Numbered from the stretch's first letter, positions 11,260 to 38,856 are shown. The stretch is DNA of 38,856 nt from Myxococcales bacterium (GCA_033578775.1 JAVQWY010000014.1:64001-102856); one strand, 5' to 3'. The notes: generated by a model not told the origin, from the sequence alone. Program-made: numbers and translations.

Positions 11260-12107
11260 CGGCGCCACGGCAGGAAGTGCAGAAACCCAGGCTCACACCG
11301 GATACCGACGAGTTGTCCCTTCATCCTACGATAGCGACGCCATCCCAACCCTGCCAGTGCGAGGAGCCCCATCAGGCCTGCCCCTGCCAGCAGGAGCAGA
11401 CGATGCGGCACCAGCGAAGGCGGCGCCCGCTCGAGAAAGCGCACTGTGATCGAGCGGTCCGACAGCGACGACGACGGCGGACCATAGAAACGAAACGTCG
11501 TGATGCGCTGCGGCTGCTCCGGTCGCGGTGCTCCCTGACAGGACTCGATCAGCTCTATACCCGGCCCCGGCTCGACGAGGATTTCGATCTCACCTGCCGG
11601 CGCAAGCCCGACGCGATCTTCATAGCGAAGCTCCTGCACCTGTCCAGATGCCACGCGCACCGAGGCAGATGTATCGACCGAAAGCGCGGCCGGGGCGACG
11701 GCATCGCCGGCAAGCCCGATCGTGGGCTCTGCAAAATGGAGCGCCACGGGCTGGCCGTTTGCCTCCAGCCGGAGTCCGGCCCTGGCCTCCCCTAGGAGCT
11801 GCCGCGCCAGGGCAGCCCCCTCGGCCTCACTGAGGCGTCCGTCGCCATCGCGATCGGCCCCCCGGCGCAGGTTGAACGCCGGGATGTCACCCACCATGAT
11901 GGTATAGGTGAGCCGCACCTGCCCACGTGGCATGAGCGCCAGCCTGCTGTATCGGTTCACCACGGAGAGGGTAAACTGCGGATGCCCTGGTGCCGGAGCC
12001 GCACCGCCAAGAATAACCAGGGCCATGGTCAGGGCAGCGCGCCATGAACAGGGCACCATGCCGCGCAGGTAACACGAGGACTGCCCCATGGCAAGCACCC
12101 GGTGCAT
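11238..12107 (-). CDS. secreted EF-hand (DxDxDG) protein with C-terminal TM anchor; probable start at 12057
   Basis: Signal peptide MVPCSWRAALTMALVILGGAAPAPG. EF-hand loop DRDGDGRLSEAE. C-terminal TM LLLLAGAGLMGLLALAGLGW followed by an RRYRRMKG tail that appears twice because of the DNA repeat. The 3' end overlaps the convergent zinc-ribbon gene by 22 bp. Confidence 0.45.
   Translation of the reverse strand: MHRVLAMGQSSCYLRGMVPCSWRAALTMALVILGGAAPAPGHPQFTLSVVNRYSRLALMPRGQVRLTYTIMVGDIPAFNLRRGADRDGDGRLSEAEGAALARQLLGEARAGLRLEANGQPVALHFAEPTIGLAGDAVAPAALSVDTSASVRVASGQVQELRYEDRVGLAPAGEIEILVEPGPGIELIESCQGAPRPEQPQRITTFRFYGPPSSSLSDRSITVRFLERAPPSLVPHRLLLLAGAGLMGLLALAGLGWRRYRRMKGQLVGIRCEPGFLHFLPWRRYRRMKG
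11241..11346. repeat. imperfect ~30-bp direct repeat (period 76 bp) spanning the stop codon of the zinc-ribbon gene
   Basis: ccccttcatcctgcgatagcggcgccacgg (11241-11270) versus tcccttcatcctacgatagcgacgccatcc (11317-11346). Confidence 0.7.
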
Positions 12108-19477: not shown

Positions 19478-20605
19478 ATGCATCCACTATACTGCCAGAC
19501 GAAGACCGTGCGTCCTTATGCCCGTCGGAAAACCACGCCGCAGCTCGTTGTAGTCGCGGCGCTCCTGGCGCTGCTGGTACACGGGCTTGTGCTGCTCCTG
19601 CTGGTGGGCAGCGGGGCCCTGCAGACGCTGCCGCTTGGACGCACCGTGGTGGCCGAGCGCACCGAGGGGTTGCTGCGCTTGGACGAGCCACCCATCGAGA
19701 TCGAGTGGCTGGTGGATCAGCTGGACCGGCCCCAGCAGGAAACCCCTGAGGAGCAGCGCCGCCGACAGGAGGAGGAAACCACGCGCCCCGAGGGACAGGT
19801 GGTGGACATCGCCCGCCCGGCCCTGGAGCAGCGTCCCGACCAGGCGCGCTTTCTGGCCGAGTACGACTCGACGGTCGAGCGGGAGACGCGAGGACCCCCA
19901 GGGCGGTCCCAGGCCGGCGCCCTCCAGCCCGCTGCCCGGCCCACCCCTCCGCCCCGCCCAGCTCGTCCTGGCCGCGCTGGCCCCCCCGGGCCGCTGGCGC
20001 TCCGGTCGGCCTCGTCGCCCCCCGCGGCTGAGAGCAGCCAGGACCTGGCCCCCGATGGCACGGCCCGGTGGCAGCCCGGCGGCCCCCATCGGACGCCCTC
20101 CCAGCCCGGCGGTGGGCAACCCGCCGCCCCTGCCACGCCCAACTTGTTGGCCACCCCCGAGCTCCTGGAGCGGGTCCTGGGCCAGGGAGCCGGCTCGCCC
20201 GACTACCTGAAGGACATCGACGACGGCGAGTACACCGCCCTAAACGCCAAGCGGTGGAAGTTCGCCTCGTTTTTCAACCGGCTCAAGCAGGCCGTGGCGG
20301 ACGAGTGGCACCCGGACACCGTCTACCTGCGCCATGATCCGTCGGGCAACATCTACGGCATCAAAGATCGCATCACGGTGCTGCGCGTGCACCTGAAGCC
20401 CGACGGCCGCATCGCCGCCATCCAGATCCTGCGCCCTTCGGGCGTCGAGTTTCTCGACGATGAGGCCGTGGGTGCCTTCAAGCGTGCCCAGCCCTTCCCC
20501 AACCCCCCCCAGCAGCTGGTCGAGCCCGACGGGTTGATCCGGTTCAATTTTGCCTTCATCTTTGAGTTGTCGGGTCGGACCTCATTCAAGGTGTTTCGCT
20601 ACTGA
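19478..20605 (+). CDS. TonB-family energy transducer
   Basis: N-terminal TM (LVVVAALLALLVHGLVLLLLVG), Pro-rich spacer, and C-terminal TonB domain (YGIKDRITVLRVHLKPDGRIAAIQILRPSGVEFLDDEAVGAFKRAQPFPNPP). The ORF tool's upstream GTG at 19448 is also possible. Confidence 0.65.
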   Translation: MHPLYCQTKTVRPYARRKTTPQLVVVAALLALLVHGLVLLLLVGSGALQTLPLGRTVVAERTEGLLRLDEPPIEIEWLVDQLDRPQQETPEEQRRRQEEETTRPEGQVVDIARPALEQRPDQARFLAEYDSTVERETRGPPGRSQAGALQPAARPTPPPRPARPGRAGPPGPLALRSASSPPAAESSQDLAPDGTARWQPGGPHRTPSQPGGGQPAAPATPNLLATPELLERVLGQGAGSPDYLKDIDDGEYTALNAKRWKFASFFNRLKQAVADEWHPDTVYLRHDPSGNIYGIKDRITVLRVHLKPDGRIAAIQILRPSGVEFLDDEAVGAFKRAQPFPNPPQQLVEPDGLIRFNFAFIFELSGRTSFKVFRY

Positions 20606-20690
20606 GGCCTCCCAGCGCGGCAACCGCGTCCTCGTAGCGCTCGACTGCCAGGACCATTCAAGGTGTTTCGCTACTGAGGCCTCCCAGCGC
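20583..20690. repeat. perfect 36-bp direct repeat x2 separated by a 36-bp unique segment, covering the stops of two convergent genes
   Basis: cattcaaggtgtttcgctactgaggcctcccagcgc at 20583-20618 and at 20655-20690. Confidence 0.9.
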
Positions 20691-22312: not shown

Positions 22313-23893
22313 TCAGAAGCGGAACTGCACCGCCAGGCGCGCCTCGCGCTCCAACGTGGTGGGGGCGTGCAGGTCGGTGCCGAGGCGGCGCTCCATGAAG
22401 AAGGCGGTCACGGTGCCGATGCTGCGATAAAAGTACAGGTGCACCGCGGCGCGCCACTGCAGCTCGTCCAGCTGGCGCTGCATCTCTGAGCTTAGCATGG
22501 CCGGCGGGTGGTCGAACCCCGAGGCGACGAACTGGCCCACGTCCATGCCCAGCATGAGCCACTTGGACACCGCCAGCACACCGACCTGGATGTTGTAGGC
22601 CAGCCCCCAGGAGCCGAACTCAATCTCGCGCTTGCCATAGGTTTCGGCCTGGATGAGCAGGCGCCGGTAGCGCAGCACGGCGAACAGGTTGGCTGCGGGG
22701 AAGCGCTCCAGCGGCCGCTGCTCCCACTTGACGCCCAGGGCTAGGGCCACGGCCAGCGGCACCGGCGTGTACAGCAGCGGGCTGTCCCATCGGCTGAAGA
22801 AGCCAACCACGTTCCAGTGGATCTGAGCGGCCACCTGGTAGGCGAAGTTGCTGTTGTCCTCGGTCAGGAAGGTGCCGCCGACGTTGCCGGTAAAGCGCCC
22901 GGTGCCGGCCGAGGCCAGGGCACGGTACAGCAGGCGCCCGCCCCGGTCGATGGGCCCGCCAAACTCCACAGCCACGCTGTAGGGCTGCTGGAAGGCGTTG
23001 ACCAGATAGAAGGGCGGGTCGAGCAGAAGCTGCTTGTAGATCGAGATGGCCAAGATGGACGACAGGCCGCCGGTGCCGCTGCTGACGTTGGCGTAGTGGC
23101 CGCGCTTGCCCAGCGGCACCTGAAACATGGCAAAGGTCAGCCGCGGCGTGCGCTCGGCGCGCACGTTGAGCAGGAAGAACGAGTTGCGGATAAACGGGAT
23201 GGGGCCGAGCACGCGCAGCTGCAGGCGCGAAAAGCGGGCGTCGAAGGTGTTGTCCTGCGCCTGGTAGGCGACCTCGGTGCGTGCCACCACGGAGAAGGAG
23301 AAGTTGGGCTGCCCCTGGCAGACGGAGATGGAGGGGTCGAAGCGGCAGCCAAAGTCCTGGCAGTCGGTGCGGCCGTCGCCGTCGTTGTCGATGCCATCGG
23401 CGCACAGCTCGTCGCTGCGTTCGCCGTCCTTGTCGTTGCCGCGGCCGATGAGATCTTCTACGGACATGCCTGGGCCCAGCTCGGGCACCGGCTCCGACGC
23501 CATGGGCTGCCCCGTGCCCTGAGCGCCGCCGGTTGCCAGCGTGGCCTGGGTGCGCTGATAGGAGCCCTGGCACACAGAGATACCGGGCACCTGACAGTCC
23601 GGGTCATCGCAGTCCATCTGGCCGTCGCCATCGTTGTCGATCCAGTCGCTGCATAGGGAATTGGTGGACTCGGGCCGCCCGTCGGGACGGCAGTGGGGCG
23701 AGTCGGCGCAGTCGGCATCGCCGCAGTCATAGACAGTATCGCCATCGTTGTCGATGCCATCGTTGCACTCGGTCTCGCGCGCCGGCTCGGCCGCAGCGAC
23801 AGGTCTGGCCGGGCACAGCAGCACCGCCAGCAGCGCAGACAAGACGACCATGTCCCCTCGGGCCGTGGGTCGCATCGGTCGCATGGCTCGCAT
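22313..23893 (-). CDS. outer-membrane beta-barrel protein with N-terminal Cys-flanked DxDxDG repeats
   Basis: Signal peptide. Four copies of C.DGIDNDGDG..DC.D.DC. The C-terminal ~350 aa have beta-barrel texture and end in the Phe-terminal AVQFRF. Confidence 0.6.
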   Translation of the reverse strand: MRAMRPMRPTARGDMVVLSALLAVLLCPARPVAAAEPARETECNDGIDNDGDTVYDCGDADCADSPHCRPDGRPESTNSLCSDWIDNDGDGQMDCDDPDCQVPGISVCQGSYQRTQATLATGGAQGTGQPMASEPVPELGPGMSVEDLIGRGNDKDGERSDELCADGIDNDGDGRTDCQDFGCRFDPSISVCQGQPNFSFSVVARTEVAYQAQDNTFDARFSRLQLRVLGPIPFIRNSFFLLNVRAERTPRLTFAMFQVPLGKRGHYANVSSGTGGLSSILAISIYKQLLLDPPFYLVNAFQQPYSVAVEFGGPIDRGGRLLYRALASAGTGRFTGNVGGTFLTEDNSNFAYQVAAQIHWNVVGFFSRWDSPLLYTPVPLAVALALGVKWEQRPLERFPAANLFAVLRYRRLLIQAETYGKREIEFGSWGLAYNIQVGVLAVSKWLMLGMDVGQFVASGFDHPPAMLSSEMQRQLDELQWRAAVHLYFYRSIGTVTAFFMERRLGTDLHAPTTLEREARLAVQFRF

Positions 23894-23899
23894 CCTTGG

Positions 23900-25123
23900 C
23901 TACTCACATACGCGACGGCCTGGGCACACCGTCACCAGCGGGTTGTGGCTGCAATCCCAGTCGCGGCAATCTATGAACCCGTCCAGGTCGTTGTCGAGCC
24001 CGTCGGAGCAGCGGGCATTGGCGGCGGCCGCATCGGGGCCGAGGCTCTCTTGGCAGGCCTGGCGCACATCGATGGTGGCGGCCTGGCTGCAGGCCCGGTC
24101 CTCGCAGTCGATGTAGCCGTTGCCATCGTTGTCGAGGCCGTCGGTACAGCGAGCGAAGGTATTCTCCAGGCGGGCAGCGCAGTAGGCCATCAGGTCGGGG
24201 TCGCCTGAGCGCGAGCAGGAAAAGTCGGCGCAGTCGGTGTAGCCGTTGCGGTCGTTGTCCACCCCATCGCTGCAGCGCGCCAGCGTGTTTTCCAGCCGCT
24301 CGGCGCAGTAGGCACGCACGGCCGCGTCAGGGGAGGTGGCGCAGGCGCGGTCGGCGCAGTCGGTGTAGCCGTTGCGGTCGTTGTCCACCCCATCGCTGCA
24401 GCGCGCCAGCGTGTTTTCTGGCAACAGGTCAGCGCACAGGGCCTGGATGGCCGGGTCGGCCGAGCGGGCGCAGTCGAAGTCGCGGCAGTCGGTGTAGCCG
24501 TCGCCGTCGTTGTCGAGGCCGTCGGCGCAGCGCTCGGGGGTGTTTTCTGGCATGCGGCAGCGCTCCAGGCGCACGCAGTCGGGGTCGCGGCAGTCGATGT
24601 GGCCGTCGCCGTCGTTGTCCAGTCCGTCGCTGCAGCGGGCGTCGGTAAGTTCAGTGCAGACGGTGACAAAGGGGCTCTGGCGGCAGCCGAAGTCGCGGCA
24701 GTCGGTGTAGCCGTTGCGGTCGTTGTCCACCCCATCGCTGCAGCGCGCATCGGTATTTTCGATGATGCAGCAGGTCTCGGGGATGGCGCGGCAGCTGGCC
24801 TCGCCGCAGTCCCAGTTGCCATCGCCGTCGTTGTCCACCTGGTCGGTGCAGGTGGCGTAGGTGGCCTCGCGACGGGGGGGTTCAGGGATGGGGGGAACCA
24901 TCTCGCCGCAGAAGGTGGAGGTGAAGCGGCAGTCGGGGTCGCGGCAGTCGACCTGGCCATCGGCGTCGTTGTCGAGGCCGTCGCTGCAGTTTTGATCCTC
25001 GGTCTCGTAGCCCAGCACCGGATAGGGCGGGCGCTCAAAGCAGCCCAGCGCCAGCAGGGCGGCAGCAGGCAGTACGGCCACCAGGCGGCCGGGACGCGGC
25101 GAATCGTCAGATGGGCGGCGCAT
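23900..25123 (-). CDS. lipoprotein composed of ~9 tandem ~41-aa Cys-flanked DxDxDG (Ca-binding-loop-like) repeats
   Basis: Lipobox LLALGC. Repeats of ENT[LF]ARCSDGVDNDRNGYTDCAD..C....P.....YCA. The underlying DNA repeats are near-identical. Confidence 0.65.
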   Translation of the reverse strand: MRRPSDDSPRPGRLVAVLPAAALLALGCFERPPYPVLGYETEDQNCSDGLDNDADGQVDCRDPDCRFTSTFCGEMVPPIPEPPRREATYATCTDQVDNDGDGNWDCGEASCRAIPETCCIIENTDARCSDGVDNDRNGYTDCRDFGCRQSPFVTVCTELTDARCSDGLDNDGDGHIDCRDPDCVRLERCRMPENTPERCADGLDNDGDGYTDCRDFDCARSADPAIQALCADLLPENTLARCSDGVDNDRNGYTDCADRACATSPDAAVRAYCAERLENTLARCSDGVDNDRNGYTDCADFSCSRSGDPDLMAYCAARLENTFARCTDGLDNDGNGYIDCEDRACSQAATIDVRQACQESLGPDAAAANARCSDGLDNDLDGFIDCRDWDCSHNPLVTVCPGRRVCE

Positions 25124-26442: not shown

Positions 26443-27912
26443 GTGTCTCATCTCAGGACGGCGATGAGCCATCCGTTCCGGCGGGCCAAGATCGTGTGCA
26501 CGCTCGGGCCGGCCAGCCGCTCGCCGGAGGTCATTGGCCATCTTATCGACGAGGGCATGGACGTTGCGCGGCTCAATTTCTCCCACGGCAGCCCGGATGA
26601 ACACCGCCGCATGGTGGCCCTGGTGCGGGAGCAGGCGCGGCTGCGCGGGCGCCCTGTGGCGGTGCTGCAGGACCTGCAGGGCCCCAAGATTCGCATCGGC
26701 AAGATGGCGCCGGGCACGGTGCTGGAGGCCGGTGCCGAGTTTGTGATCACGACGCAGGAGATCGTGGGCGATGCGACGCGCGCCTCGACCACCTACCGGG
26801 AGCTGCCACGTGACGTGCAGGTGGGCGACATCATGCTATTGGACGACGGGATGCTGCAACTCGAGGTGCTGGAGGTGGCTGGGGAGGAGGTCATCACCCG
26901 CGTGCTGGTGGGCGGGCCGCTGTCGGACAACAAGGGCATCAACCTGCCCGGCGTGCATGTGTCTGCGCCCTCGCTGTCGGACAAGGACCGGGCGGACCTG
27001 GTGCTGGGGCAGGAGCTGGGGGTGGACTTCGTGGCGCTCTCGTTTGTGCGCTCGCCGCAGGATGTGATCCAGGCCAAGGAGGCCATTCACGATGCGCGCC
27101 TGGCGCTGGGTGGGCGGCCGCGGCGGGCGCCCACCCCGGTCATCGCCAAGATCGAGAAACCCGAGGCGGTGGAACACCTGGCCGAGATCATTGAGGTGGC
27201 CGACGGCATCATGATTGCCCGCGGAGACCTGGGGGTGGAGCTGGGGCCAGAGAAGGTGCCGCTCATCCAGAAGTCGGCCATCGAGCTGACCAACCAGCAT
27301 GGCAAGCTGGTCATCACGGCGACGCAGATGCTGGAATCGATGACCGTCGCGCCACGGCCGACACGCGCCGAGGCGAGCGATGTGGCCAACGCGATTCTCG
27401 ACGGGACCGATGCGGTCATGCTGTCTGGCGAGACGGCCTCGGGGCGCTATCCGCTGCTGGCGGTGCGGACCATGGTGCGCATCGTGCGCGAGGTGGAGCA
27501 GAGCCCGCGCTTTCACCAGCTTATGGCGCGGCAGTCGTGGCCCAAGCTGGCTGTGACCAGCAACGCCGTGGCCCATGCGGCGGTGGTGGCGTCGCGACTG
27601 GTCAAGGCCCCGGTCATCGTCTCGGTGAGCGATTCTGGCGGGGTGGTGCGTTTGCTATCCGAGTACCGTCCCGAGGCGCTGCTGGTGGCGCTGTCGCGGC
27701 ACGAGGAGGTCTACCGTCAGCTGGCTGCCTACTGGGGCGTCGTGCCCATGATCGCACCCGAGGTGCAGACGGAGCAGGAGATGGTGGACTTTATCTTGCC
27801 CATGCTGCGGGAGCGGGGCTATGCCCGCAGCGGCCAGGCGGTGGTGATCACGATGGCGCTGCCCTATGGCAGCGGCCTGCCCACCAACACGATGCAGATC
27901 TTGCAGGTGTAG
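26443..27912 (+). CDS. pyk: pyruvate kinase
   Basis: RRAKIVCTLGPAS, NFSHGS and MIARGDLGVE. GTG start at 26443 with an AGGAGG RBS; the ATG at 26464 is an alternative. Confidence 0.95.
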   Translation: MSHLRTAMSHPFRRAKIVCTLGPASRSPEVIGHLIDEGMDVARLNFSHGSPDEHRRMVALVREQARLRGRPVAVLQDLQGPKIRIGKMAPGTVLEAGAEFVITTQEIVGDATRASTTYRELPRDVQVGDIMLLDDGMLQLEVLEVAGEEVITRVLVGGPLSDNKGINLPGVHVSAPSLSDKDRADLVLGQELGVDFVALSFVRSPQDVIQAKEAIHDARLALGGRPRRAPTPVIAKIEKPEAVEHLAEIIEVADGIMIARGDLGVELGPEKVPLIQKSAIELTNQHGKLVITATQMLESMTVAPRPTRAEASDVANAILDGTDAVMLSGETASGRYPLLAVRTMVRIVREVEQSPRFHQLMARQSWPKLAVTSNAVAHAAVVASRLVKAPVIVSVSDSGGVVRLLSEYRPEALLVALSRHEEVYRQLAAYWGVVPMIAPEVQTEQEMVDFILPMLRERGYARSGQAVVITMALPYGSGLPTNTMQILQV

Positions 27913-28013
27913 GCGCCGGTCCGCCTGGGGCAGCGCGATCGGTCTGCTGCTGTCCCGCCTGGGTCAGAGCGTTGCGGTTGGTGTGGCGCCGGTCCGCAGG
28001 GGGGAGCGCGACC
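27907..28013. repeat. diverged (~85% identical) ~33-bp direct repeat with 74-bp period starting on the pyk stop codon
   Basis: gtgtaggcgccggtccgcctggggcagcgcgatc (27907-27940) versus gtgtggcgccggtccgcaggggggagcgcgacc (27981-28013). Confidence 0.6.
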
Positions 28014-29770: not shown

Positions 29771-29933
29771 GGTGCTCCTTGTGCGTGCTGGCCCATCATA
29801 CTGGCCAGGGGCCGTAAGGTCCAGGCCACCAACCGGCGGGTGGCGCTTGGGCCGGGACGAGGGTCTGCGCCCTTTGCCCACATAGGGGCGAGCTGGACCC
29901 ATGGGGGGGCGGGGCGGCGGGAAGGGCTTGCGC

Positions 29934-30156
29934 ATCCAGGCCCCAGAAGAGTGCAGGGGCTGACGCAAAGGAGCGAATGCAGGCTTGAGTAGCGATAAAC
30001 CGGGTGAATCCAGGCCCCAGAAGAGTGCAGGGGCTGACGCAAGGGAACCTGGGCCTGGCGGAGGAGACTAGGGCTTGCGCAGGAACTTAGCTCCCGTGGC
30101 CTGTCTCCCGGAGTAACAGGGACCTGGGCCTGGCGGAGGAGACTAGGGCTTGCGCA
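29934..30156. repeat. two adjacent repeat-spacer-repeat structures (35-bp perfect repeats A and B, each x2, spacers 39-40 bp)
   Basis: Repeat A (atccaggccccagaagagtgcaggggctgacgcaa) lies at 29934-29968 and 30008-30042. Repeat B (acctgggcctggcggaggagactagggcttgcgca) lies at 30047-30081 and 30122-30156. B copy 2 contains the sterol methyltransferase stop codon. Confidence 0.9.
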
Positions 30157-31168
30157 CCAGAAAGTAGAACATCGGCGTGAAGATGCCGGTTCGCCCCCCC
30201 TCGACGAGGTAGCCCGCCCCGCGCTGCAGGAACGAGCTGACCGCGGTGGCGCCCTTGGGTGCCACGCCCACGGCCTCCAGGCTGCGGACCATCTGGTGGG
30301 TCAGCCATCGGCCCACGGGGCTGGAGCGGAACCCGCTGGGGGTGTACCAGGGGGCTGCCAGGGGCAGGTACCAGGGCGTCTCCGGGTCGGCGGTCAAGGC
30401 CCGGTCCTCGCTTTCCAGCACCTCGAAGCCGACCGCGCGCAGCGCTTCCAGCACCTCCGGCACCGTCGCCAGCTCGGGCAGCGCGTTGCCTTCCTCGATG
30501 CCCTGCCGGATCTCCCGATGGCGGGGGTTTTGCGAGTCGTACCGGTCGGTCACGCACCACTCGTAGGCGGCAAAGTGCGCGCCCGGCTTGAGCACGCGGA
30601 AAACCTCGCCGTAGATTTGCCGCTTGTCCGGCGCGTGGCAGGTGGCCTCGATGGCATAGGCGGCATCGAAGGTGCCATCTGGCACCGGAACGGACAGAAA
30701 GTCGCACTTGAGGAGCTCGCACAGGTGGCTCAGGCGGGCCGCCTCGTTGTGTTTGCGGGCCCGTGCGATCTGGTAGTCGTTGTTGTTCAGGCCGACGATG
30801 GTGGCGCCGCTAAAGCGGGCAATGGAGCGCATCGGCCCCCCCACCCCGCAGCCGAAATCGGCCACCCTCATGCCCGGCCGCAAGCCCAGGCGCAGCGCCA
30901 AAAAGTGCTCGTAGCGCGCGATGGAAGCAGCAAATGCCTCGCCGCGGAAGCGCGGCGCAAAGTGAAAGGACTGTCCCCAGCCGAACTCATAGAAATCCGT
31001 GACAAGATCGTAAAAGTTGTTGACCAGCGTCGCATAGGACTGTTTGCGACGTTCCGTGCTGCCGCCCCGGGAACGGTCATACTGGGCGGTGTAGTTGTCC
31101 ACGGTGGCCTGAACCTCGTCCCGGGCGAGGGATGTCTGACAGATGTCGGTGACCGATGGTGCGTCCAT
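30143..31168 (-). CDS. sterol 24-C-methyltransferase (ERG6/SMT1 family, SAM-dependent)
   Basis: Near-colinear match to ERG6 hallmark blocks: YEFGWGQSFHFAPRFRGEAFAASIARYEHFLA, FGCGVGGP, VGLNNNDYQIARA, YAIEATCHAP, VLKPGAHFAAYEWCVTDRYDSQNPRHREI, GGRTGIFTPMFYFLVRKP. Start at MDAPSV; the upstream ORF extension was rejected. Confidence 0.85.
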   Translation of the reverse strand: MDAPSVTDICQTSLARDEVQATVDNYTAQYDRSRGGSTERRKQSYATLVNNFYDLVTDFYEFGWGQSFHFAPRFRGEAFAASIARYEHFLALRLGLRPGMRVADFGCGVGGPMRSIARFSGATIVGLNNNDYQIARARKHNEAARLSHLCELLKCDFLSVPVPDGTFDAAYAIEATCHAPDKRQIYGEVFRVLKPGAHFAAYEWCVTDRYDSQNPRHREIRQGIEEGNALPELATVPEVLEALRAVGFEVLESEDRALTADPETPWYLPLAAPWYTPSGFRSSPVGRWLTHQMVRSLEAVGVAPKGATAVSSFLQRGAGYLVEGGRTGIFTPMFYFLVRKP

Positions 31169-31314: not shown

Positions 31315-32652
31315 ATGAGCGGAGAGCCTGAGCAGCCTGTTCCTGTCCCTGTCTATGACGTTTGCGTTGTCGGTGCCGGCCCGAGCGGTGCCACGTGTGC
31401 ATACTATCTGGCGCAGCGCGGCAAGCGGGTTTTGTTGCTGGAGAAAAAGACCTTTCCGCGCGACAAGCTGTGCGGCGATGCCGTCTGCACCAACGCCCAG
31501 ATCCACCTGGACCGCATGGGCGTGCTTCGGGAGCTAGAGGAGGAGGGCACCGGTCACTGGGCTGCAGTGGGGGGCCTGGTCAGCCCGCGGCGCATCGGGT
31601 TCATTGGCAACTCGGCCAAGCAAAATGGCCGCCCGCTGGTGATGGCCGTCAAGCGCATGATCCTCGACGAGAAGATTGCGCGCGCGGCGCAGCGGGCCGG
31701 GGCCCTTCTGGTGGAAAACACCACCGTGACCGGTGCCTCTCTCTCGCGGGCCGAAGGGGTGTGGACGGTCCAGGCAACCCGCAACGGGGCGGCCGTGTCC
31801 TACCGGGCGCGGGCGCTGGTGGCGGCAGATGGGGCGCTGTCGCGGCTCACCCAGGCCCTTGGCATCCCGACGCCGCCGCCAGACAGCGTGTGCAGCCGGG
31901 CCTACATCAAGGCCGGCACGCATCAGTTCGACATGGACGGCGTGGTCTTTTATGAGCTGGACATGGTGCCCGGCTACTGCGCCCTGTTCCGCGAGGCTGG
32001 CGGCGACGTCAACTACTGCGTCTATATCATCCCGGGCGGGCGCTGCTCCATTGACGATCTTTACGAGATGCACCACCGCATCCTCCGCGACAACCCGTAT
32101 GTGCGTCGGGCGGTCGGTCCCCACGCGGTCATCGACAAGATGAAGGGGGCACCGCTGCGCCTGGGTGGCATCCGCAAAAGCTACCACGACCACCTGCTCA
32201 TTGTCGGCGATGCGGCCGGACACATTGACCCGCTCACCGGCGAGGGCATCCATCATGCCATGGACGGTGGGTACCTGGCCGCCGAGGTGCTGTGCGAGGC
32301 CCTGGCAGTCGGCGACCTCAGCGAGCGGTTCCTGCGCCGCTATCAGGACCGCTGGATGCGCGCCTTTGGCCGCGATTTCTTCTGGTCCAAGAAGATGGCC
32401 CAGGTCTTTGCGAAGGCGCCGATTCTGGTCGATGCCAGCGCCGCGGTCATGCAGCGCAAGGGCGCGGACTCGCTGCTGGAATGGGGCCGTGTCATGACCG
32501 GCGTGGCCCCCAAGCGCTACTTTCTGCGGCCGGAGGTGGCGCTGCCCCTTCTTGTGGAGACGGGACGCCAGGTCGTCCGGCAAGCCTTGGGGAAGATCGT
32601 TCCAGATGTCAGGGTCTCTCTCGATGGAGTGGTTCGGCCCTGGATGCCCTAG
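31315..32652 (+). CDS. geranylgeranyl-reductase-family FAD-dependent oxidoreductase
   Basis: YDVCVVGAGPSGATCAYYLAQRGKRVLLLEKK is the Rossmann GxGxxG. LCGDAV. LIVGDAAGHIDPLTGEGIHHAM is GGR/ChlP-like. Alternative start at 31294. Confidence 0.8.
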   Translation: MSGEPEQPVPVPVYDVCVVGAGPSGATCAYYLAQRGKRVLLLEKKTFPRDKLCGDAVCTNAQIHLDRMGVLRELEEEGTGHWAAVGGLVSPRRIGFIGNSAKQNGRPLVMAVKRMILDEKIARAAQRAGALLVENTTVTGASLSRAEGVWTVQATRNGAAVSYRARALVAADGALSRLTQALGIPTPPPDSVCSRAYIKAGTHQFDMDGVVFYELDMVPGYCALFREAGGDVNYCVYIIPGGRCSIDDLYEMHHRILRDNPYVRRAVGPHAVIDKMKGAPLRLGGIRKSYHDHLLIVGDAAGHIDPLTGEGIHHAMDGGYLAAEVLCEALAVGDLSERFLRRYQDRWMRAFGRDFFWSKKMAQVFAKAPILVDASAAVMQRKGADSLLEWGRVMTGVAPKRYFLRPEVALPLLVETGRQVVRQALGKIVPDVRVSLDGVVRPWMP

Positions 32653-32662
32653 TGGTGCTCCC

Positions 32663-33061
32663 TTCGGGGCGGGGGCCCCGGTTCGCGGGGCAGGGGGGCA
32701 GCGGACTCAGGTGGGCCGGGAAAATATCCCAAGGCGCTTGAGAGGCGAGGGAGAGCACAAGGCTCGAGCCGGTGTCAATCAGGTTTGCCCCCGGGAAAAT
32801 ATCCCAAGGCGCTTGAGAGGCGAGGGCCCCGGTCCGCGGGGCAGGGGGGCAGCGGACCCGAGCCGGCTGGCGCCGCAGGGCTCTCCGGCTGGGGGCGGAG
32901 CAGGCGCGTCGGGAAGGACACGGGGCCCTGCGCCCGGGCACCCGCTGGGGCTGCGGCCGTGTCATCATCCTGCCATATCCTGCCATCGGCGGGCGGAGAT
33001 GCGCGCTACAGGAGATCCCTCGCCCCCCGCTGGGGCTGCGGCCGTGTCATCATCCTGCCAT
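32663..33061. repeat. complex nested direct-repeat region filling the intergenic space
   Basis: C is a 34-bp repeat with 1 mismatch at 32673-32706 and 32824-32857. D is a 36-bp perfect repeat at 32716-32751 and 32791-32826. E is a 36-bp perfect repeat at 32941-32976 and 33026-33061, overlapping the downstream ATG. Confidence 0.9.
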
Positions 33062-34271
33062 GCCATCCCTGCCCGCGCCTGCTGAGCAGGCGAAGCATTT
33101 CTGCCTGGAGGCGGGCGTGGTGTTTCTGAACCACGGCTCGTTTGGCGCCTGTCCCCGTCCTGTGCTGGCGGAGCAGGACCGGCTGCGCGTCCGGCTGGAG
33201 CAGGAGCCGGTGCGCTTTTTCCTCCAGGAGGCGCCGGTGCTGCTCGGGCGGGCCCGCGCGGCGCTGGCCGAGCTGGTGGGGGCCGACGAGCAGGATCTGG
33301 TCTTTGTGGCCAATGCCACCACGGCTGTGAACGCCGTGCTGCGCTCGCTGGATCTCCGCCCGGGAGATGAGCTGCTCGAGACGGACCACAGCTACAACGC
33401 CTGCCGCAACGTGCTGCGCTACCTGGCGGCGCGCACCGGCGCCCTCGTCCGCACCGTCGCGCTGCCCCTGCCCATCTCCGGCCCCCAGGAGGTGGTGGAG
33501 CGGGTGCTGCAGGAGGTCACGCCGCGCACGCGCCTGGCGCTGCTGGACCACGTGACCAGCCCCACAGCGCTGGTGCTGCCCGTGGCCGAGCTGGTACGCG
33601 CCCTCCAGGAGCGCGGGGTGGACACGCTGGTGGACGGCGCGCATGCCCCCGGGATGCTGCCCCTGGACCTGCGCGCCCTGGGCGCGGCCTACTATGCTGG
33701 CAACTGCCACAAGTGGCTGTGCACGCCCAAGGGTGCTGGGTTCCTGTACGTCCGTCGGGACCGCCAGGTGGGCCTGGTGCCGCCGGTCATCAGCCATGGC
33801 TACAACGCGCCGCCGTCTGAGCAGCCGCGGCTGCACGCCCTCTTTGACTGGACCGGCACGGTGGACCCGACGCCGGCGCTGTGCGTGCCCGCGGCGATTG
33901 CGTTTCTGTCCGGCCTGATGCCGGGCGGGCTGGCAGCGCTGCAAGAGCGCAACCGACAGCTGGCCTGTCAGGCCCGGCAGGTGCTGTGCGCAGCCCTGGG
34001 CCTGCCGCCGCCCTGCCCCCAGCAGATGCTGGGCAGCATGGCCGCGGTCCCCTTGCCCGACGAGGACAGGGGGACGCCGCGGTCGCCGCTCCAGCCCGAT
34101 CCGCTGCAGACGGAGCTGCGCGAGCGGTTTGGCATCCAGGTGCCGATCATGTCCTGGCCTGCATGGCCCCACCGCCTGCTGCGCATCTCTGCCCAGGCCT
34201 ACAACAGCCTGGCCCAGTACGAGTACCTGGCAGAGGCTCTGGGCACCCTGCTGGGGGCGTCCCGCCGGTAG
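33060..34271 (+). CDS. class V aminotransferase-fold PLP enzyme (isopenicillin-N-epimerase / cysteine-desulfurase-like)
   Basis: FLNHGSFGACP, ANATTAVNAV, HVTSPTALVLPV and GNCHKWLCTPKG (K is the PLP lysine). Confidence 0.8.
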   Translation: MPSLPAPAEQAKHFCLEAGVVFLNHGSFGACPRPVLAEQDRLRVRLEQEPVRFFLQEAPVLLGRARAALAELVGADEQDLVFVANATTAVNAVLRSLDLRPGDELLETDHSYNACRNVLRYLAARTGALVRTVALPLPISGPQEVVERVLQEVTPRTRLALLDHVTSPTALVLPVAELVRALQERGVDTLVDGAHAPGMLPLDLRALGAAYYAGNCHKWLCTPKGAGFLYVRRDRQVGLVPPVISHGYNAPPSEQPRLHALFDWTGTVDPTPALCVPAAIAFLSGLMPGGLAALQERNRQLACQARQVLCAALGLPPPCPQQMLGSMAAVPLPDEDRGTPRSPLQPDPLQTELRERFGIQVPIMSWPAWPHRLLRISAQAYNSLAQYEYLAEALGTLLGASRR

Positions 34272-34404
34272 CAGGCCCCAGCTCAGGGCTCCTGCGGCGA
34301 CCGGCCTGCGGGCGCCTGCCCTATGCTCGGCGGGCACCCAAGGTCCCCGCGGTCCGAACGCAACCCCAGGGCCGGGGGTCCTGCCGCTGCCCCTGCTGGT
34401 GTAC

Positions 34405-34505
34405 AATGTTTGTCGAAAAAATAGCGATCATCTGGGCGCATATTTGGGGTTGACATTAAACGGACTCTATATAATACATAGACATAGCTTCATCGCTCGA
34501 GGAGG
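34405..34505 (+). promoter_or_regulatory. AT-rich island with sigma-70-like hexamers upstream of the ECF sigma gene
   Basis: TTGACA at 34450-34455 and TATAAT at 34470-34475, with a short 14-bp spacer. GGAGG RBS at 34501-34505. This is the only strongly AT-rich ~100 bp in this part of the window. Confidence 0.35.
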
Positions 34506-34514
34506 CGTTGGTCC

Positions 34515-35096
34515 ATGTCCTGTCCCTCTCCACCCCGAACCCAGTCCGCGCTGCCTCCCACTGCAGTCATCGTCAAAAGCCGCGCCCGGCTGTTGCGCCA
34601 GGCGCGCCGCATGCTTCGCGATCGAGACGGTGCCGAAGACGCCGCCCAGGACGCGCTGGTGTGCGCCCTGCGCGGCCTGCAGGACTTCCGCGGCGAGGCG
34701 CAACTGGGCACCTGGCTGTACCGCCTCGGCGTCAACGCCGTCCTGATGAGCCTGCGCCGCCAGCGCCGCGCCGCCGCCCGCCTGTCCCGTGCCGCCCGCC
34801 TGTCTGCCGGCCGGCCCAGCTGGCTCCACGGAACCTCCGAGGCCCTGGCCTACCGCGCCCAGCCGCTCGAGCAGCTGGAGGCCCACGAGCTCGCCCGCTC
34901 GCTCCGCCGCGCCGTCCGGGAACTGCCCGATGCCTACTCGACCGTGGTGACCCTGTGCGACCTGGACGGCCGCCCCCTGCCCGAGGTCGCCAGCACCCTC
35001 GGCCTCAGCGTCGCCGGCGTGCGCACCCGGCGTCTGCGCGCCCACCGCATGCTCCGCCAGGCCCTGGGCCCCCAGGCCGCCGGGTGGGCCCCATGA
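34515..35096 (+). CDS. RNA polymerase ECF-type sigma-70 factor
   Basis: Region 2 (EDAAQDALVCALRGLQDFRGEAQLGTWLYRLGVNAVLMSLRRQ) and region 4 (LPDAYSTVVTLCDLDGRPLPEVASTLGLSVAGVRTRRLRAHRMLRQAL). Confidence 0.75.
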   Translation: MSCPSPPRTQSALPPTAVIVKSRARLLRQARRMLRDRDGAEDAAQDALVCALRGLQDFRGEAQLGTWLYRLGVNAVLMSLRRQRRAAARLSRAARLSAGRPSWLHGTSEALAYRAQPLEQLEAHELARSLRRAVRELPDAYSTVVTLCDLDGRPLPEVASTLGLSVAGVRTRRLRAHRMLRQALGPQAAGWAP

Positions 35097-36025
35097 CCCC
35101 CCAGCTGGGCCTGGTCTGCCTGTCGGCCGGACCCGAGGTCCGCTTCCGCACCACCACCCGTGCCTTCCTGCACCGCCACCGCCCCTGCGAGGCCCAGCAG
35201 CTGCTCCGGGCACTCTACCGCGACAACCTCGCCCGCCTGGAACGCGCCTTCGCCTTCTGCGCCTCGCTCGGCATCTCGCTCTACCGCATGCCCTCCAGCC
35301 TCTTTCCCTTCGCCGACGCCGAGGGCGCCCCCCTGCTCGAAGAGCTCGCCGAGCCGCTGGCCGCCCTGGGCCGCCAGGCCCGCCAGCAAGGCCTCCGTCT
35401 GCTGCTCCACCCCGACCAGTTCGTCGTCCTCAGCTCCGACTCGGCCGCCACGGTGCGCAACGCCCACCTCATGCTCGCCATGCAGGGACGCCTGATGGAC
35501 CTGCTCGACCAGCCCCGCTCCCCCTGGGCCGCCATCAACATCCACGGCGGCAAGGCCGGACGCCTGGCCGCCCTGGTCCGCGAGATCCGCTCCCTGCCCG
35601 ACGCCGTGCGCACCCGCCTCACCCTGGAAAACGACGAGCGCGCCTACGGCAGCGCAGAGATCCTAGAAGCCTGCCAGCAGGCCGGCGTGCCCATGGTCTT
35701 CGACGCCCACCACCACCTTGTTCACGACCGCCTGTCCTCCTACGACGACCCGAGCATCGCCCACTGGCTGGCTGCCGCCCGCCAAAGCTGGCCCGACCCC
35801 TCCCTGCAGGTGGTCCACATCTCCAACGGCCGCGACCACCTGCAGGACGCCCGCCACAGCGACTGGATCACCCACATGCCCACCGCCTACCGCCACGCCC
35901 CCTGGATCGAGGTGGAGGCCAAAGCCAAAGACGAGGCCATCCGCCGCCTCCGCCAACGCTGGCGCCCCCTGCGAGCCCGACCCTCCGGCCCCCGCGCGCC
36001 CGGTGCCCAGCAAGCAAACCGCTAG
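35093..36025 (+). CDS. uvsE: UV DNA damage endonuclease
   Basis: LGLVCLS, SLGISLYRMPSSLFPF, LLLHPDQFVVLSS, NIHGG, LTLENDER and HIS of the UVDE/UvsE family. ATGA overlap with the ECF sigma stop. Confidence 0.85.
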   Translation: MTPQLGLVCLSAGPEVRFRTTTRAFLHRHRPCEAQQLLRALYRDNLARLERAFAFCASLGISLYRMPSSLFPFADAEGAPLLEELAEPLAALGRQARQQGLRLLLHPDQFVVLSSDSAATVRNAHLMLAMQGRLMDLLDQPRSPWAAINIHGGKAGRLAALVREIRSLPDAVRTRLTLENDERAYGSAEILEACQQAGVPMVFDAHHHLVHDRLSSYDDPSIAHWLAAARQSWPDPSLQVVHISNGRDHLQDARHSDWITHMPTAYRHAPWIEVEAKAKDEAIRRLRQRWRPLRARPSGPRAPGAQQANR

Positions 36026-36127
36026 GGCCCCCCGCCAGCCGCCCCCCCGCACGCCGCTCCCCCCAAGATGCCCTGCGAGCCCGACCCTCCGGCCCCCGAC
36101 GCGCCCGGTGCCCAGCAAGCAAACCGC
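35967..36127. repeat. 56/57-bp direct repeat (1 indel) with 104-bp period; copy 1 is the last 18 codons of uvsE
   Basis: ccctgcgagcccgaccctccggcccccg(a)cgcgcccggtgcccagcaagcaaaccgc at 35967-36022 and 36071-36127. Confidence 0.85.
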
Positions 36128-36136
36128 CCCTGCCCT

Positions 36137-37510
36137 TTACGGCGCGACCATCAAGCAGCGGGTGACCGGCTGCAGGATGTCGGCCGTCACATAAAGATAA
36201 TACCGTCGCCCGCTCACCAGCGGCGCCGGCGGCCCCGACAGCGGGAAACGCTGCCGCCCGCCCGCAGGCACCTGCCCATAGCGCACCGTGCCGCTGGCCC
36301 ACGGCTCCCCCTCCGGCGGCACATCGATGCGCCAAATCGTCCCAGCGGGCAAATCCAGATTCGGCGGCACCGTCGGCGAGGCCGCCCCCTCCTCCAGCAC
36401 ATACAGGTAGCGCGCCCGACCCCCACGCCACACGATCCGCCCATCCGGCGTCACCCCCTCCCCCCGCGTGCAGGCCGAGGGCCGGAACAACCGCTGCTCG
36501 TCGATCGGCCCAAACACATACCGCATCCCGGCAAACATCTCCTGGCGCAGCCCCCGCCGCTCCGCCTCCCGGACAAAGAAGCGCCGCATGCGGGCATCGT
36601 CCGTCGTGACAAAGATGGTGTGATGGGGGTTGTCCGGCGTGGCCCGCGAAAACCCGTTGTTCTCCTCTGGCGGATAGGCCCCCAGCCCAGAGGTGTCGAT
36701 CCAGCCCGCCCCCATGGCGATGCCGCGATCAAAAAACCCGTTGATGAAGTTGCCAGGCGCGTCCAGGTACCAGTTGGACGGCCCCCGCGGCGCGCTGCTG
36801 GAGTGGCAGCAGACGCAGGCCGTGGACTCGATCTGGCTCCGCACCCAGGCCAGCTCCTGCGCATACTCCGGATCCTGCAGCCGCTCATCCGGTCGGTCCG
36901 CCCCAGGGGCAGTCGGCACGGGATAGTAGGGTCGCTGGGTGCGCACCCGGTCGCAGCTCGCATAGTCGGCAAAGCGCCGTCCCGGCTCCGTGGCCCCAGA
37001 GATCATCTCCCAGGTGCACACCTGCCCCCCTGGCGACCGACCGGGCGGCTCCCCTGGCAGCGGGTCCTGGCATCGCCGCACCGGCTGCTGGAACACGACC
37101 AGCCCCCCGCCGCGGTCCTGGTCCGGATCGACCCCCCCACAGATCGGCGCCGGGTCGAACGCCCCCCGTCCGAAAAACTCACACCCCCGCAGCGTGGAGC
37201 CGCACGCCCCCGGGTCGTTGCCCGGCAGGCTGGCCCGGATGTAGCGGCCCTCCTGCTCCCAGATGCAGTAGCCCAGCACCTGCTCCAGGTTGCAGGCCTG
37301 GCCGATCGTCACCTCCCCCCCCCACGAGTCGCAGTCTTGCCGAATCTGCTCCTCGGTCCAGTCCCCGTGGTAGTCGCGACACTCGAACTTGCGGCTGAAG
37401 CGGTTTTCATACCGGCACGAGCCCGCGATCTCCTCCGGAATGACCGGCACTTCTTTCTTGGCGCAGCCCCCCAGCACAGCGACCAGGACACACATGATGC
37501 GGCACAACAT
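36137..37510 (-). CDS. hypothetical lipoprotein containing a single CXXCH motif
   Basis: Lipobox VAVLGGCA. Cys-rich N-terminal region. CVCCH matches the heme-c-binding pattern; a possible PSD1/DUF1587-like relation is unverified. Confidence 0.45.
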   Translation of the reverse strand: MLCRIMCVLVAVLGGCAKKEVPVIPEEIAGSCRYENRFSRKFECRDYHGDWTEEQIRQDCDSWGGEVTIGQACNLEQVLGYCIWEQEGRYIRASLPGNDPGACGSTLRGCEFFGRGAFDPAPICGGVDPDQDRGGGLVVFQQPVRRCQDPLPGEPPGRSPGGQVCTWEMISGATEPGRRFADYASCDRVRTQRPYYPVPTAPGADRPDERLQDPEYAQELAWVRSQIESTACVCCHSSSAPRGPSNWYLDAPGNFINGFFDRGIAMGAGWIDTSGLGAYPPEENNGFSRATPDNPHHTIFVTTDDARMRRFFVREAERRGLRQEMFAGMRYVFGPIDEQRLFRPSACTRGEGVTPDGRIVWRGGRARYLYVLEEGAASPTVPPNLDLPAGTIWRIDVPPEGEPWASGTVRYGQVPAGGRQRFPLSGPPAPLVSGRRYYLYVTADILQPVTRCLMVAP

Positions 37511-37742
37511 GATGGATCCAACCTCCTACCCCTTGGATGCCGTCCCCCTCCCGCCGGCGCCCGGCTGCCAGGAAAAAGCCACAGGCCCAGCGGCCCTCCA
37601 GCCGCCCCCTCCGCCACCCCGCTGTCTTTGGCGCCAGCAGGGCAGACCGCCTGCGGCATCTCATGGTATGAGATGGACGCCTAGCGGGACCCCACGTCCT
37701 CCGGGGACCGACCCTGTCTCACCCCTAGCTGCGAGGAAGACC

Positions 37743-38816
37743 ATGTTCAAGACCTGTCTGCCGCTGGCCTTGGTGTTGCTCCTTGGCTGCCCCCCCCCGC
37801 CGCCCCCCTGCCAGGGGGGGGAGTGCCCTGACCTGAAAGCAGACCCCCCCGATGCCGCCCCTGGCGATGCGGCCACCCCACCGGATGCCAGCGCGGCCGA
37901 CCTGCGTCCTGCCCCCGACCTGGTGGCAGGGGTGCCTGACCCGGGCCGCCCCGGACCGCGCCGCACCGTCCGCTTTGACCTGCGCGTGCCCGTGGCCCCT
38001 GGGGGGCTGCTGGACGTCACCGTGATCGGTCCCAGCGAGGATGGCCGGACGCTGTCGCGCTCAGGCGCCCCCTTCCCCGTGGTGATCATCTCCCCCGGCT
38101 TCACGCTGCCGCGGACGCAGTTTGCCGGCTACGGCGAGCGCCTGGCCAGCCACGGCCTGCTGGCAGTGCTCCAGAAGGCCCGCAACGAGACAGACCATGT
38201 GCAGTACCGCGACGACACCATCCGCCTGCTCGACTGGCTCGGCGCCCCCACCGGGCCGGATGCCTCGCGCCTGGAGGGACGTGCCGATGTGAACCGCGCA
38301 GGCGTGTGCGGCCACTCCCTCGGCGGCAAGATCTCCTACCTGGTGGCAGCGCGCGACCGGCGCATCCGCGGGGTCATCGGCATCGACCCGGTCGACGGCG
38401 GCGGCTTCGGCATGGCCCCCACGGCTCGGGAGGCGCTCCCCTCGGTGCGCCTGCCCCCGGGGATCGCCATCGGCTTCCTCGGCCAGACCATCAGCAAGAG
38501 CGGCCTGATGCCCTGCACCCCGGCCGACCGCAACTACGAGGTGCTCTATGCGGCCGCGCCCGCCCCCGCTTTTGCCATCACCTTCGTGGGGGCGGCCCAC
38601 AACGACTTCGTCGATGACTTTGGCAGCTGCTTCCAGTGCGGCTTCTGCCCGGGCAGCACCGCGCCGCGCGAGCGCACGCGCGACCTGGCCATCCGCTACG
38701 TCACCGCCTACTTCCTGAAGGCCCTGGCCGGAATCGCCGGGGCCGAGGACTACCTGTCCGGCGAGGCCTTCCAGCGGGACGTGATGTCGGGCGCCGTGAC
38801 CCGCCAGGCCAAGTGA
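37743..38816 (+). CDS. lipoprotein alpha/beta-hydrolase, cutinase/PETase/chlorophyllase-like (polyesterase/lipase fold)
   Basis: Lipobox LLLGC followed by PPPPPPC. FPVVIISPGFTLPRTQFAGYGERLASHGLLAV parallels the cutinase/PETase core. GHSLGG is the nucleophile elbow. GAGGAAG RBS. Confidence 0.7.
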   Translation: MFKTCLPLALVLLLGCPPPPPPCQGGECPDLKADPPDAAPGDAATPPDASAADLRPAPDLVAGVPDPGRPGPRRTVRFDLRVPVAPGGLLDVTVIGPSEDGRTLSRSGAPFPVVIISPGFTLPRTQFAGYGERLASHGLLAVLQKARNETDHVQYRDDTIRLLDWLGAPTGPDASRLEGRADVNRAGVCGHSLGGKISYLVAARDRRIRGVIGIDPVDGGGFGMAPTAREALPSVRLPPGIAIGFLGQTISKSGLMPCTPADRNYEVLYAAAPAPAFAITFVGAAHNDFVDDFGSCFQCGFCPGSTAPRERTRDLAIRYVTAYFLKALAGIAGAEDYLSGEAFQRDVMSGAVTRQAK

Positions 38817-38856
38817 GCGCCGCAGAGCCGGCGGGGGGCCTGCATTCTACCCGCTA

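Follow-up and report, generated by a model that had tools for sequence, protein, structure and literature searches.

When the CRISPR adaptation integrase Cas1-Cas2 joins a spacer, a target of repeat length is duplicated, and non-CRISPR sites are also used, both in vitro and in vivo (PMC6698737, PMC6895254; Nivala 2018, according to the passages that cite it in PMC7054753 and 10.1101/148544). Rulers in Cas1-Cas2 place the second attack, and its position shifts when the ruler motifs are absent (PMC6895254). Type III-A Cas1-Cas2 takes at least 30% of new spacers from ribosomal RNA (rRNA) and transfer RNA (tRNA) genes, independently of a protospacer-adjacent motif (PAM) and of orientation, and these spacers are removed from arrays through autoimmunity (PMC8860593, PMC8860600). 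Systems with a reverse transcriptase (RT)-Cas1 fusion acquire spacers from RNA (PMC6821258, PMC5576922). Laboratory work has demonstrated off-target integration, whereas for wild genomes our literature search found only hints. Here we analyse a 38,856-nt stretch of a Myxococcales bacterium (GCA_033578775.1, JAVQWY010000014.1:64001-102856; the window), in which the 3' end of uvsE, the gene for an ultraviolet (UV) damage endonuclease, is repeated on the far side of a 48-nt segment. At least 11 local scars of the form repeat, unique insert, repeat lie in about 42 kb of this uncultured Myxococcota genome, and we propose, with a probability of about 0.75, that the family represents ectopic (off-target) CRISPR spacer integrations.

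The first-pass annotation had stated that the last 18 codons of uvsE recur 104 bp downstream as a 56/57-nt repeat with one indel, which a repeat search and an independent assembly confirmed. The copies (Table 1) consist of two exact 28-nt blocks each, at offsets of 104 and 105 nt, and the extra A at 36099 is the sole difference between copy 2 and copy 1. The segment between them, S6, proved as homopolymer-rich as had been noted. Its first triplet is the uvsE stop TAG (36023-36025) and its last is the ATG (36068-36070) of a 538-aa plus-strand open reading frame (ORF; 36068-37684), which runs antisense to the convergent gene and is a spurious shadow of it; the earlier description of copy 1 as abutting the uvsE stop, and of copy 2 with its inserted base as seeding a spurious ORF, was accurate. 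Tandem Repeats Finder (TRF) detected 2.7 copies of a 15-nt unit in S6 and no 104/105-nt array. S6 is single-copy in the window, carries a C/A strain polymorphism at 36048 and has no significant similarity to the repeat or the flanks; neither ahead of copy 1 nor beyond copy 2 is there a sequence that corresponds to it.

The first 28-mer has exactly two occurrences in the window with three or fewer mismatches, and none of 100 shuffles matched. A MEGAHIT contig (JANWXW010000122.1, here L002) of the Myxococcota metagenome-assembled genome (MAG) SKYG55 matches window positions 33038-38856 with eight mismatches and no gap, and reproduces the whole 161-nt structure, second copy and extra A included. 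The window itself probably derives from a second MAG, with locus tags RMK29_. In addition, a Logan k=31 contig (L001, run SRR15826901) spans copy 1 and 25 nt of S6, terminating one base ahead of the polymorphism at 36048. In view of the shuffles and of the agreement with L002 and L001, a chance origin of the repeat is excluded and an assembly artefact is very unlikely. It might still be argued that the two copies never lie on one molecule and were joined by assembly or strain mixture, as every source is a short-read metagenome assembly, contigs tend to break at such repeats and the population is polymorphic. However, the structure is identical in two assemblies that are eight single-nucleotide polymorphisms apart, a third assembler recovered the passage from copy 1 into S6, the exact blocks of 28 nt are shorter than k=31 and therefore create no graph ambiguity, and contig ends at sibling scars sit exactly where true repeats predict them. 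We accordingly give this explanation almost no weight.

The sibling scars were found by a short-range direct-repeat scan and an exact-run scan over the window plus 3.1 kb of L002 past the window end, which together make up the 42 kb, and they bear out the earlier remark that the uvsE repeat is one of several such instances. No two siblings share a repeat sequence, and the segment between the copies is unique in each. In the offset spectrum of the 42 kb, with one repeat-rich gene masked, nearly all local repeats other than tandem ones are confined to a small number of start-to-start spacings: 72-76 nt (nine repeat pairs), 85 nt (one pair, 75 plus a 10-nt slip), 104/105 nt (two loci) and 151 nt (one nested pair, 76 + 75); the only stray is a weak pair at 207 nt inside uvsE. 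Among the six young scars, duplications measure 35-39 nt and inserts 35-40 nt. The control sequences, about 450 kb in total (405 kb of uvsE loci of other taxa and about 47 kb of GC-rich contigs with the nearest relatives of the pyridoxal phosphate (PLP) decarboxylase gene, which are not syntenic with the window), contained no such scars and only short-period tandem repeats.

Table 1. Features of the uvsE scar, its siblings and the inserts with rRNA similarity (window positions unless L002 is named)
Feature	Position	Strand	Description
uvsE (UV damage endonuclease)	35093-36025	+	310 aa; PF03851 UvdE, residues 5-261
uvsE repeat copy 1	35967-36022	+	56 nt; codes for uvsE tail PLRARPSGPRAPGAQQANR; without the extra A of copy 2
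Insert S6	36023-36070	+	48 nt; 81% GC; C runs; 15-nt periodicity
uvsE repeat copy 2	36071-36127	+	57 nt; convergent intergenic region; 10 nt from stop of minus-strand gene
Convergent gene	36137-37510	-	Hypothetical lipoprotein-like protein; annotated in both NCBI MAGs
E8	11241-11343		Probable old sibling; about 26-33 nt repeated, spacing 75, decayed; 3' end of GYF/zinc-ribbon gene
E1	20583-20690		Identical 36-nt repeats (20583-20618/20655-20690); 36-nt insert
E2	27912-28011		Older; just past pyruvate kinase stop; 27-nt repeat (24/27 identical), spacing 73
E3a	29934-29968/72 and 30008-30042/46		Repeat 35 nt exact (39 with one mismatch); insert 35-39 nt
E3b	30047-30081 and 30122-30156		Repeat 35 nt exact, includes methyltransferase stop; insert 37-40 nt
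E4old	32668-32706 and 32819-32857		39-nt repeat, 37/39 identical; nested with younger E4
E4	32716-32751 and 32791-32826		Younger; 36-nt repeat; 39-nt insert
E5	32941-33061		Identical 36-nt repeats (32941/33026); 49-nt insert
L002 pair	L002 6033 / 6108		36-nt repeat; 39-nt insert
L002 older pair	L002 5933 / 6009
L002 pair	L002 6231-6346		44 nt; spacing 72
L002 scar	L002 8510-8643 (8510 / 8615)		Spacing 105; repeat 29-35 nt, insert 70-76 nt; end of 757-aa ORF
Insert S3a	29973-30007		Sense 23S, E. coli 1250-1284; score 55; 32/35 to Sphingomonas 23S
Insert S4old	32708-32743		Sense 23S, E. coli 1617-1652; score 42 over 36 nt
Insert S3b	30082-30121		Antisense 23S, E. coli 929-960; score 32; homologous position in both references

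The siblings are also supported at the level of reads, because Logan contigs end at 20612 (L101) and at 30127 (two runs), exactly the k=31 branch points that a 36-nt repeat predicts. L001 and L002 both start within E5 copy 2 (33026-33061), and it is such scars and strain variants that explain where MAG contigs break. A 28.9-kb Logan contig that ends at 20612 has no internal break; the first 20 kb of the window therefore lacks young scars, which cluster in the following 21 kb. The scars of the family occupy gene ends, including 5' regions, and plain intergenic DNA. At E1 the repeat holds the stops of two convergent genes, encoding a TonB-like protein (+) and the PLP decarboxylase (-), each of which uses a different copy; both flanking genes retain complete ends at E1 and E3b. 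Between 29.9 and 30.2 kb there are three copies of one repeat, the oldest of them degenerate, and a 12-nt remnant of an older copy lies beside E3a at 29922-29933; such repeated insertion at one spot fits the reported growth of off-target sites. E5, whose second copy abuts the start codon of an aminotransferase gene, has an insert in which 39 nt are joined by 10 nt that repeat the end of the repeat in tandem. This perfect 10-nt tandem duplication (ATCCTGCCAT x2, 32967-32986) sits exactly where copy 1 meets the insert and resembles the product of slippage while the gap was repaired.

The composition of the inserts indicates which part of a scar is foreign. Three of them, S3a (from E3a), S4old (within the E4old insert) and S3b (from E3b), match 23S rRNA, and none of 400 random window 38-mers reached a score of 32 against rRNA. 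In each of the three the homology ends at the border between insert and repeat; therefore the middle segment is the inserted DNA and the repeat the target-site duplication, not the reverse, and for the uvsE repeat, too, the best reading is that a short insertion lies between the copies of a duplicated target site. Among plasmids and chromids, S3a matched records of several taxa and S4old matched 72 records, in unannotated stretches; in the one record examined with Rfam (L111) the matched stretch lies inside a 23S gene. On the 29.9-30.2-kb cluster, the E-value mode of Rfam misses even a true 23S fragment and is unsuited to fragments. The remaining inserts, S6 included, have no match to the E. 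coli and Sphingomonas rrn operons used as references, both distant from this organism. A weak match of S1 to the 5' end of 23S was rejected, since 22 of 400 controls scored as well or better. No protospacer was found for any insert by exact-core scans of IMG/VR or by blastn against phages. Homologues were also compared to see if the middle segment of E1 could be ancestral coding sequence; all of them end before it, which makes the comparison uninformative, with slight favour to insertion.

Several simpler accounts of the inserts were rejected. The middle segments are unrelated to their neighbours (identity at random level), contrary to simple tandem duplication, and no insert has a second copy elsewhere in the window, contrary to local templated insertion. 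Pairwise scores among inserts are no better than those of shuffles, so that they do not form a family of small mobile elements, and the set has no codon periodicity, S1 excepted, as random GC-rich coding DNA would have.

Because three inserts derive from 23S, part of the most abundant cellular RNA, and in both orientations, we also considered that all scars arose by a non-CRISPR retro-insertion in which an RT copies abundant RNA into staggered nicks; target-primed events give variable duplications and would accommodate the 57 nt at uvsE. The ruler-narrow inserts (35-40 nt) and duplications (35-39 nt) of the young scars speak against this, no RT gene was present among the scanned ORFs of the window, and we know of no bacterial RT that performs such target-primed rRNA insertion. 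We regard it as improbable. The same data would be expected from an RT-Cas1 fusion, which is counted within the proposed explanation.

What the insertion did to uvsE can be judged from its relatives. In a C-terminal alignment of 29 homologues the core ends at the W codon 35960-35962 (...AIRRLRQRW), and the ten closest UvsE homologues (P0002-P0011) stop 0-4 residues past ...LRQRW. Positions 35963-36022 thus code for a 20-aa non-conserved tail of UvsE in the window, and it is the repeat that encodes this tail; the PLP decarboxylase at E1 has a repeat-encoded non-conserved tail as well. Since conserved sequence ends at ...LRQRW, the enzyme proper does not include the 18 final codons that were duplicated; judged from the alignment, they are former intergenic DNA that is read through. 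The earlier view that a gene 3' terminus had been duplicated therefore holds as a consequence and fails as a cause, as the tail lies beyond the UvdE core and siblings also occur at 5' ends and in intergenic DNA.

When copy 1 and the insert are removed to reconstruct the empty site, the ORF ends at a TGA (36162-36164) and overlaps the convergent gene by 28 nt. The original event would have added 57 + 48 = 105 nt, an in-frame insertion of 35 codons into uvsE; a later deletion of one A in copy 1 would have set the initial TAG of S6 in frame, shortening the tail and abolishing the predicted 28-nt overlap. For uvsE itself the effect is minor, because the change is confined to the non-conserved tail.

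The repeat sequence is absent from all relatives compared, which gave no sign of a conserved downstream element. This bears on the idea that the repeat is a functional element maintained in duplicate. It might act as a terminator or attenuator or as a small RNA, or might represent the template and variable repeats of a diversity-generating retroelement at the uvsE 3' end. Terminators are expected at a position such as this, where a gene ends facing a convergent neighbour, and G-quadruplexes are in principle conceivable on the G-rich strand opposite S6. However, no Rfam family was found in the window, no terminator-like site covers the repeat or insert (a 1.1-kb scan found only 35930-35945 and 36519-36533), folding is no better than that of shuffles on either strand (z = 0.58, 0.50), and the copies differ by a 1-nt indel, not by adenine-specific substitutions, with no RT nearby. 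A functional role of this kind is highly improbable.

In the protein database the UvsE that ranks next has 70% identity, and JGI metagenomes yielded nothing above 62%. In GTDB representative genomes the nearest UvsE proteins are those of Nostocales cyanobacteria (52-54% identity), not of Myxococcota, which suggests that uvsE may have been acquired horizontally or that the lineage is very poorly sampled. An extracytoplasmic function (ECF) sigma-factor gene (34515-35096) overlaps the uvsE start (35093) by 4 nt (ATGA), an arrangement that suggests that uvsE may be co-transcribed with a stress sigma factor.

The scar family fits ectopic spacer integration in four independent respects: duplication length, insert length, insert diversity and insert source. 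The 35-39-nt duplications of the young siblings fit CRISPR repeats of 36-37 nt, and we know of no enzyme other than the CRISPR adaptation integrase that inserts fragments of 35-40 bp at joining points staggered by about 36 bp. At uvsE, a 48-bp DNA from elsewhere would have been inserted between the uvsE core and the convergent downstream gene, and the 57 bp between the staggered joining points would have been copied to both sides at gap filling. The enzyme would be the Cas1-Cas2 integrase of this genome, working off-array; the system to which it belongs would probably be type III-like, its CRISPR repeats about 36 bp long. Copies placed off-array could persist because they would not be expressed as CRISPR RNA (crRNA).

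Whether the uvsE scar itself is a product of the same process we consider evenly balanced. It shares with its siblings the architecture, the niche in a gap between convergent genes and the genome; a local duplication flanks the insert, no target bases were lost and the reconstructed empty site is an intact ORF. Irregular products do occur in this region, as at E5. The odd sizes of 57 and 48 nt might reflect an aberrant second-strand attack or an untrimmed prespacer, and S6 may have lengthened by slippage, as is possible given its 2.7 copies of a 15-nt unit. Two overlapping canonical events were rejected as a source of the scar, since a third partial copy is predicted and none is seen.

A number of observations weigh against the proposed integrase origin. 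The uvsE duplication measures 57 nt against 35-39 nt in the young siblings, and S6 measures 48 nt against 35-40 nt in the sibling inserts. The L002 scar at 8510-8643 has the same 105-nt period with another split between repeat and insert, which the integrase model does not predict. The 38.9-kb window contains neither cas genes nor a CRISPR array, and no leader-repeat-like motif common to the repeats is evident in the small sample of 10 sites. The density, about one scar per 4 kb, is far above any reported for off-target integration. A source of S6 was sought in the other inserts, the rRNA references, phages, plasmids and IMG/VR without a match. In addition, an empty-site allele did not turn up in the collections searched, UvsE forms a protein cluster with a single member, and GTDB representatives offer the same species and then relatives of at most 54% identity.

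The main rival for the uvsE scar is an unrelated duplication with filler DNA, that is, a one-off replication or repair accident apart from the canonical scars, by a staggered break with fill-in and end joining that captured filler DNA or by a double template switch. Sizes that do not belong to the narrow size ranges of the six young scars favour it, and polymerase stuttering could give the low complexity, C runs and 15-nt period of S6, which also weakly resembles the 24 nt preceding copy 1 (an equal or better score in 27 of 500 shuffles). Yet the junctions show no microhomology, S6 has no local template, the architecture recurs at least ten times nearby and never in the controls, the L002 scar at 8510-8643 is a second event with the same period, and a staggered duplication of 57 nt is not an outcome of any known repair pathway. 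We therefore consider an accident unlikely, although it deserves more weight than any of the other rivals.

If the integrase origin is correct, it is possible, although we hold this only tentatively, that ectopic spacer integration is a natural and still ongoing process in the lineage and has left a very dense record there, in which the 105-nt class, that of the uvsE scar, is a second outcome so far undescribed. Were the local density to hold genome-wide, there would be hundreds of scars per genome, and the adaptation integrase would be a major source of intergenic indels and a mutagen in nature. It would split overlapping convergent genes, remodel tails as in uvsE, displace promoters and seed mini-arrays, providing natural examples of the birth of new arrays; and as off-array scars would keep self-derived rRNA spacers, they would form a selection-free record of what the integrase captures. 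For annotation, the scars account for gene tails that look odd, for spurious ORFs, for "questionable CRISPR" calls and for the recurrent breaks between contigs.

Three further features of the region were recorded. A methyltransferase gene with a sterol methyltransferase C-terminal domain (30143-31168, minus strand) lies beside a gene for a geranylgeranyl-reductase-family flavoprotein (31315-32652, plus strand), and by their domain content the pair may relate to bacterial sterol or isoprenoid modification. A coding repeat at 23333-25000 (minus strand) has 11-13 copies of 105-138 nt with Asp/Asn/Gly motifs (DNDGD-like) and conserved Cys codons; its ORFs, as cut, gave no Pfam match. Past the hydrolase gene, about 14 copies of a heptamer tandem repeat, CTCCTAG/CTCCTAA, occupy 38844-38856 and run on in L002 5820-5915.

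The uvsE scar can be set against several known arrangements of direct repeats. Unlike a CRISPR array, it has only two copies, each scar in the region has its own repeat, and the window has no cas genes. As in a diversity-generating retroelement, one copy lies in a gene 3' end and the other just downstream, but no RT is present in the scanned window ORFs, the 57-nt copies have no adenine-specific differences, and the region codes for a non-conserved tail and not for a ligand-binding domain. Tandem duplication by slippage also leaves direct local repeats a short distance apart, but here unrelated sequence separates the copies. Transposons and casposons resemble the scars in that staggered joining and gap filling duplicate the target on both sides. 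Their known duplications are 2-15 bp (14-15 bp for casposons) and their inserts are copies of related elements, whereas the duplications here are 36-57 bp and every insert is different.

The closest similarities are with CRISPR adaptation. As in acquisition by type III-A and RT-Cas1 systems, the identified inserts are rRNA fragments of about 35-40 nt in either orientation with no evident PAM; in those studies the spacers enter the array and the rRNA-derived ones are lost through autoimmunity, whereas the scars lie off-array and would be harmless, and the S. epidermidis system samples 16S and 5S more than 23S, the source of all three inserts identified in this region. The off-target "neo-CRISPR" loci of Nivala, Shipman and Church 2018, as far as they are described in the passages citing them (PMC7054753, PMC6698737, 10.1101/148544), likewise combine a spacer-sized insert with duplicated flanks and take repeated hits at one spot, as in the three-copy mini-array at 29.9-30.2 kb. 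According to the same passages, that work used E. coli overproducing Cas1-Cas2 and gave 28-bp duplications, and the natural cases they mention are circumstantial only; the scars described here differ from these loci in that they occur naturally, are fixed and lie close together, with at least 11 of them in 42 kb, and in that the one at uvsE has a duplication of 57 bp and an insert of 48 bp.

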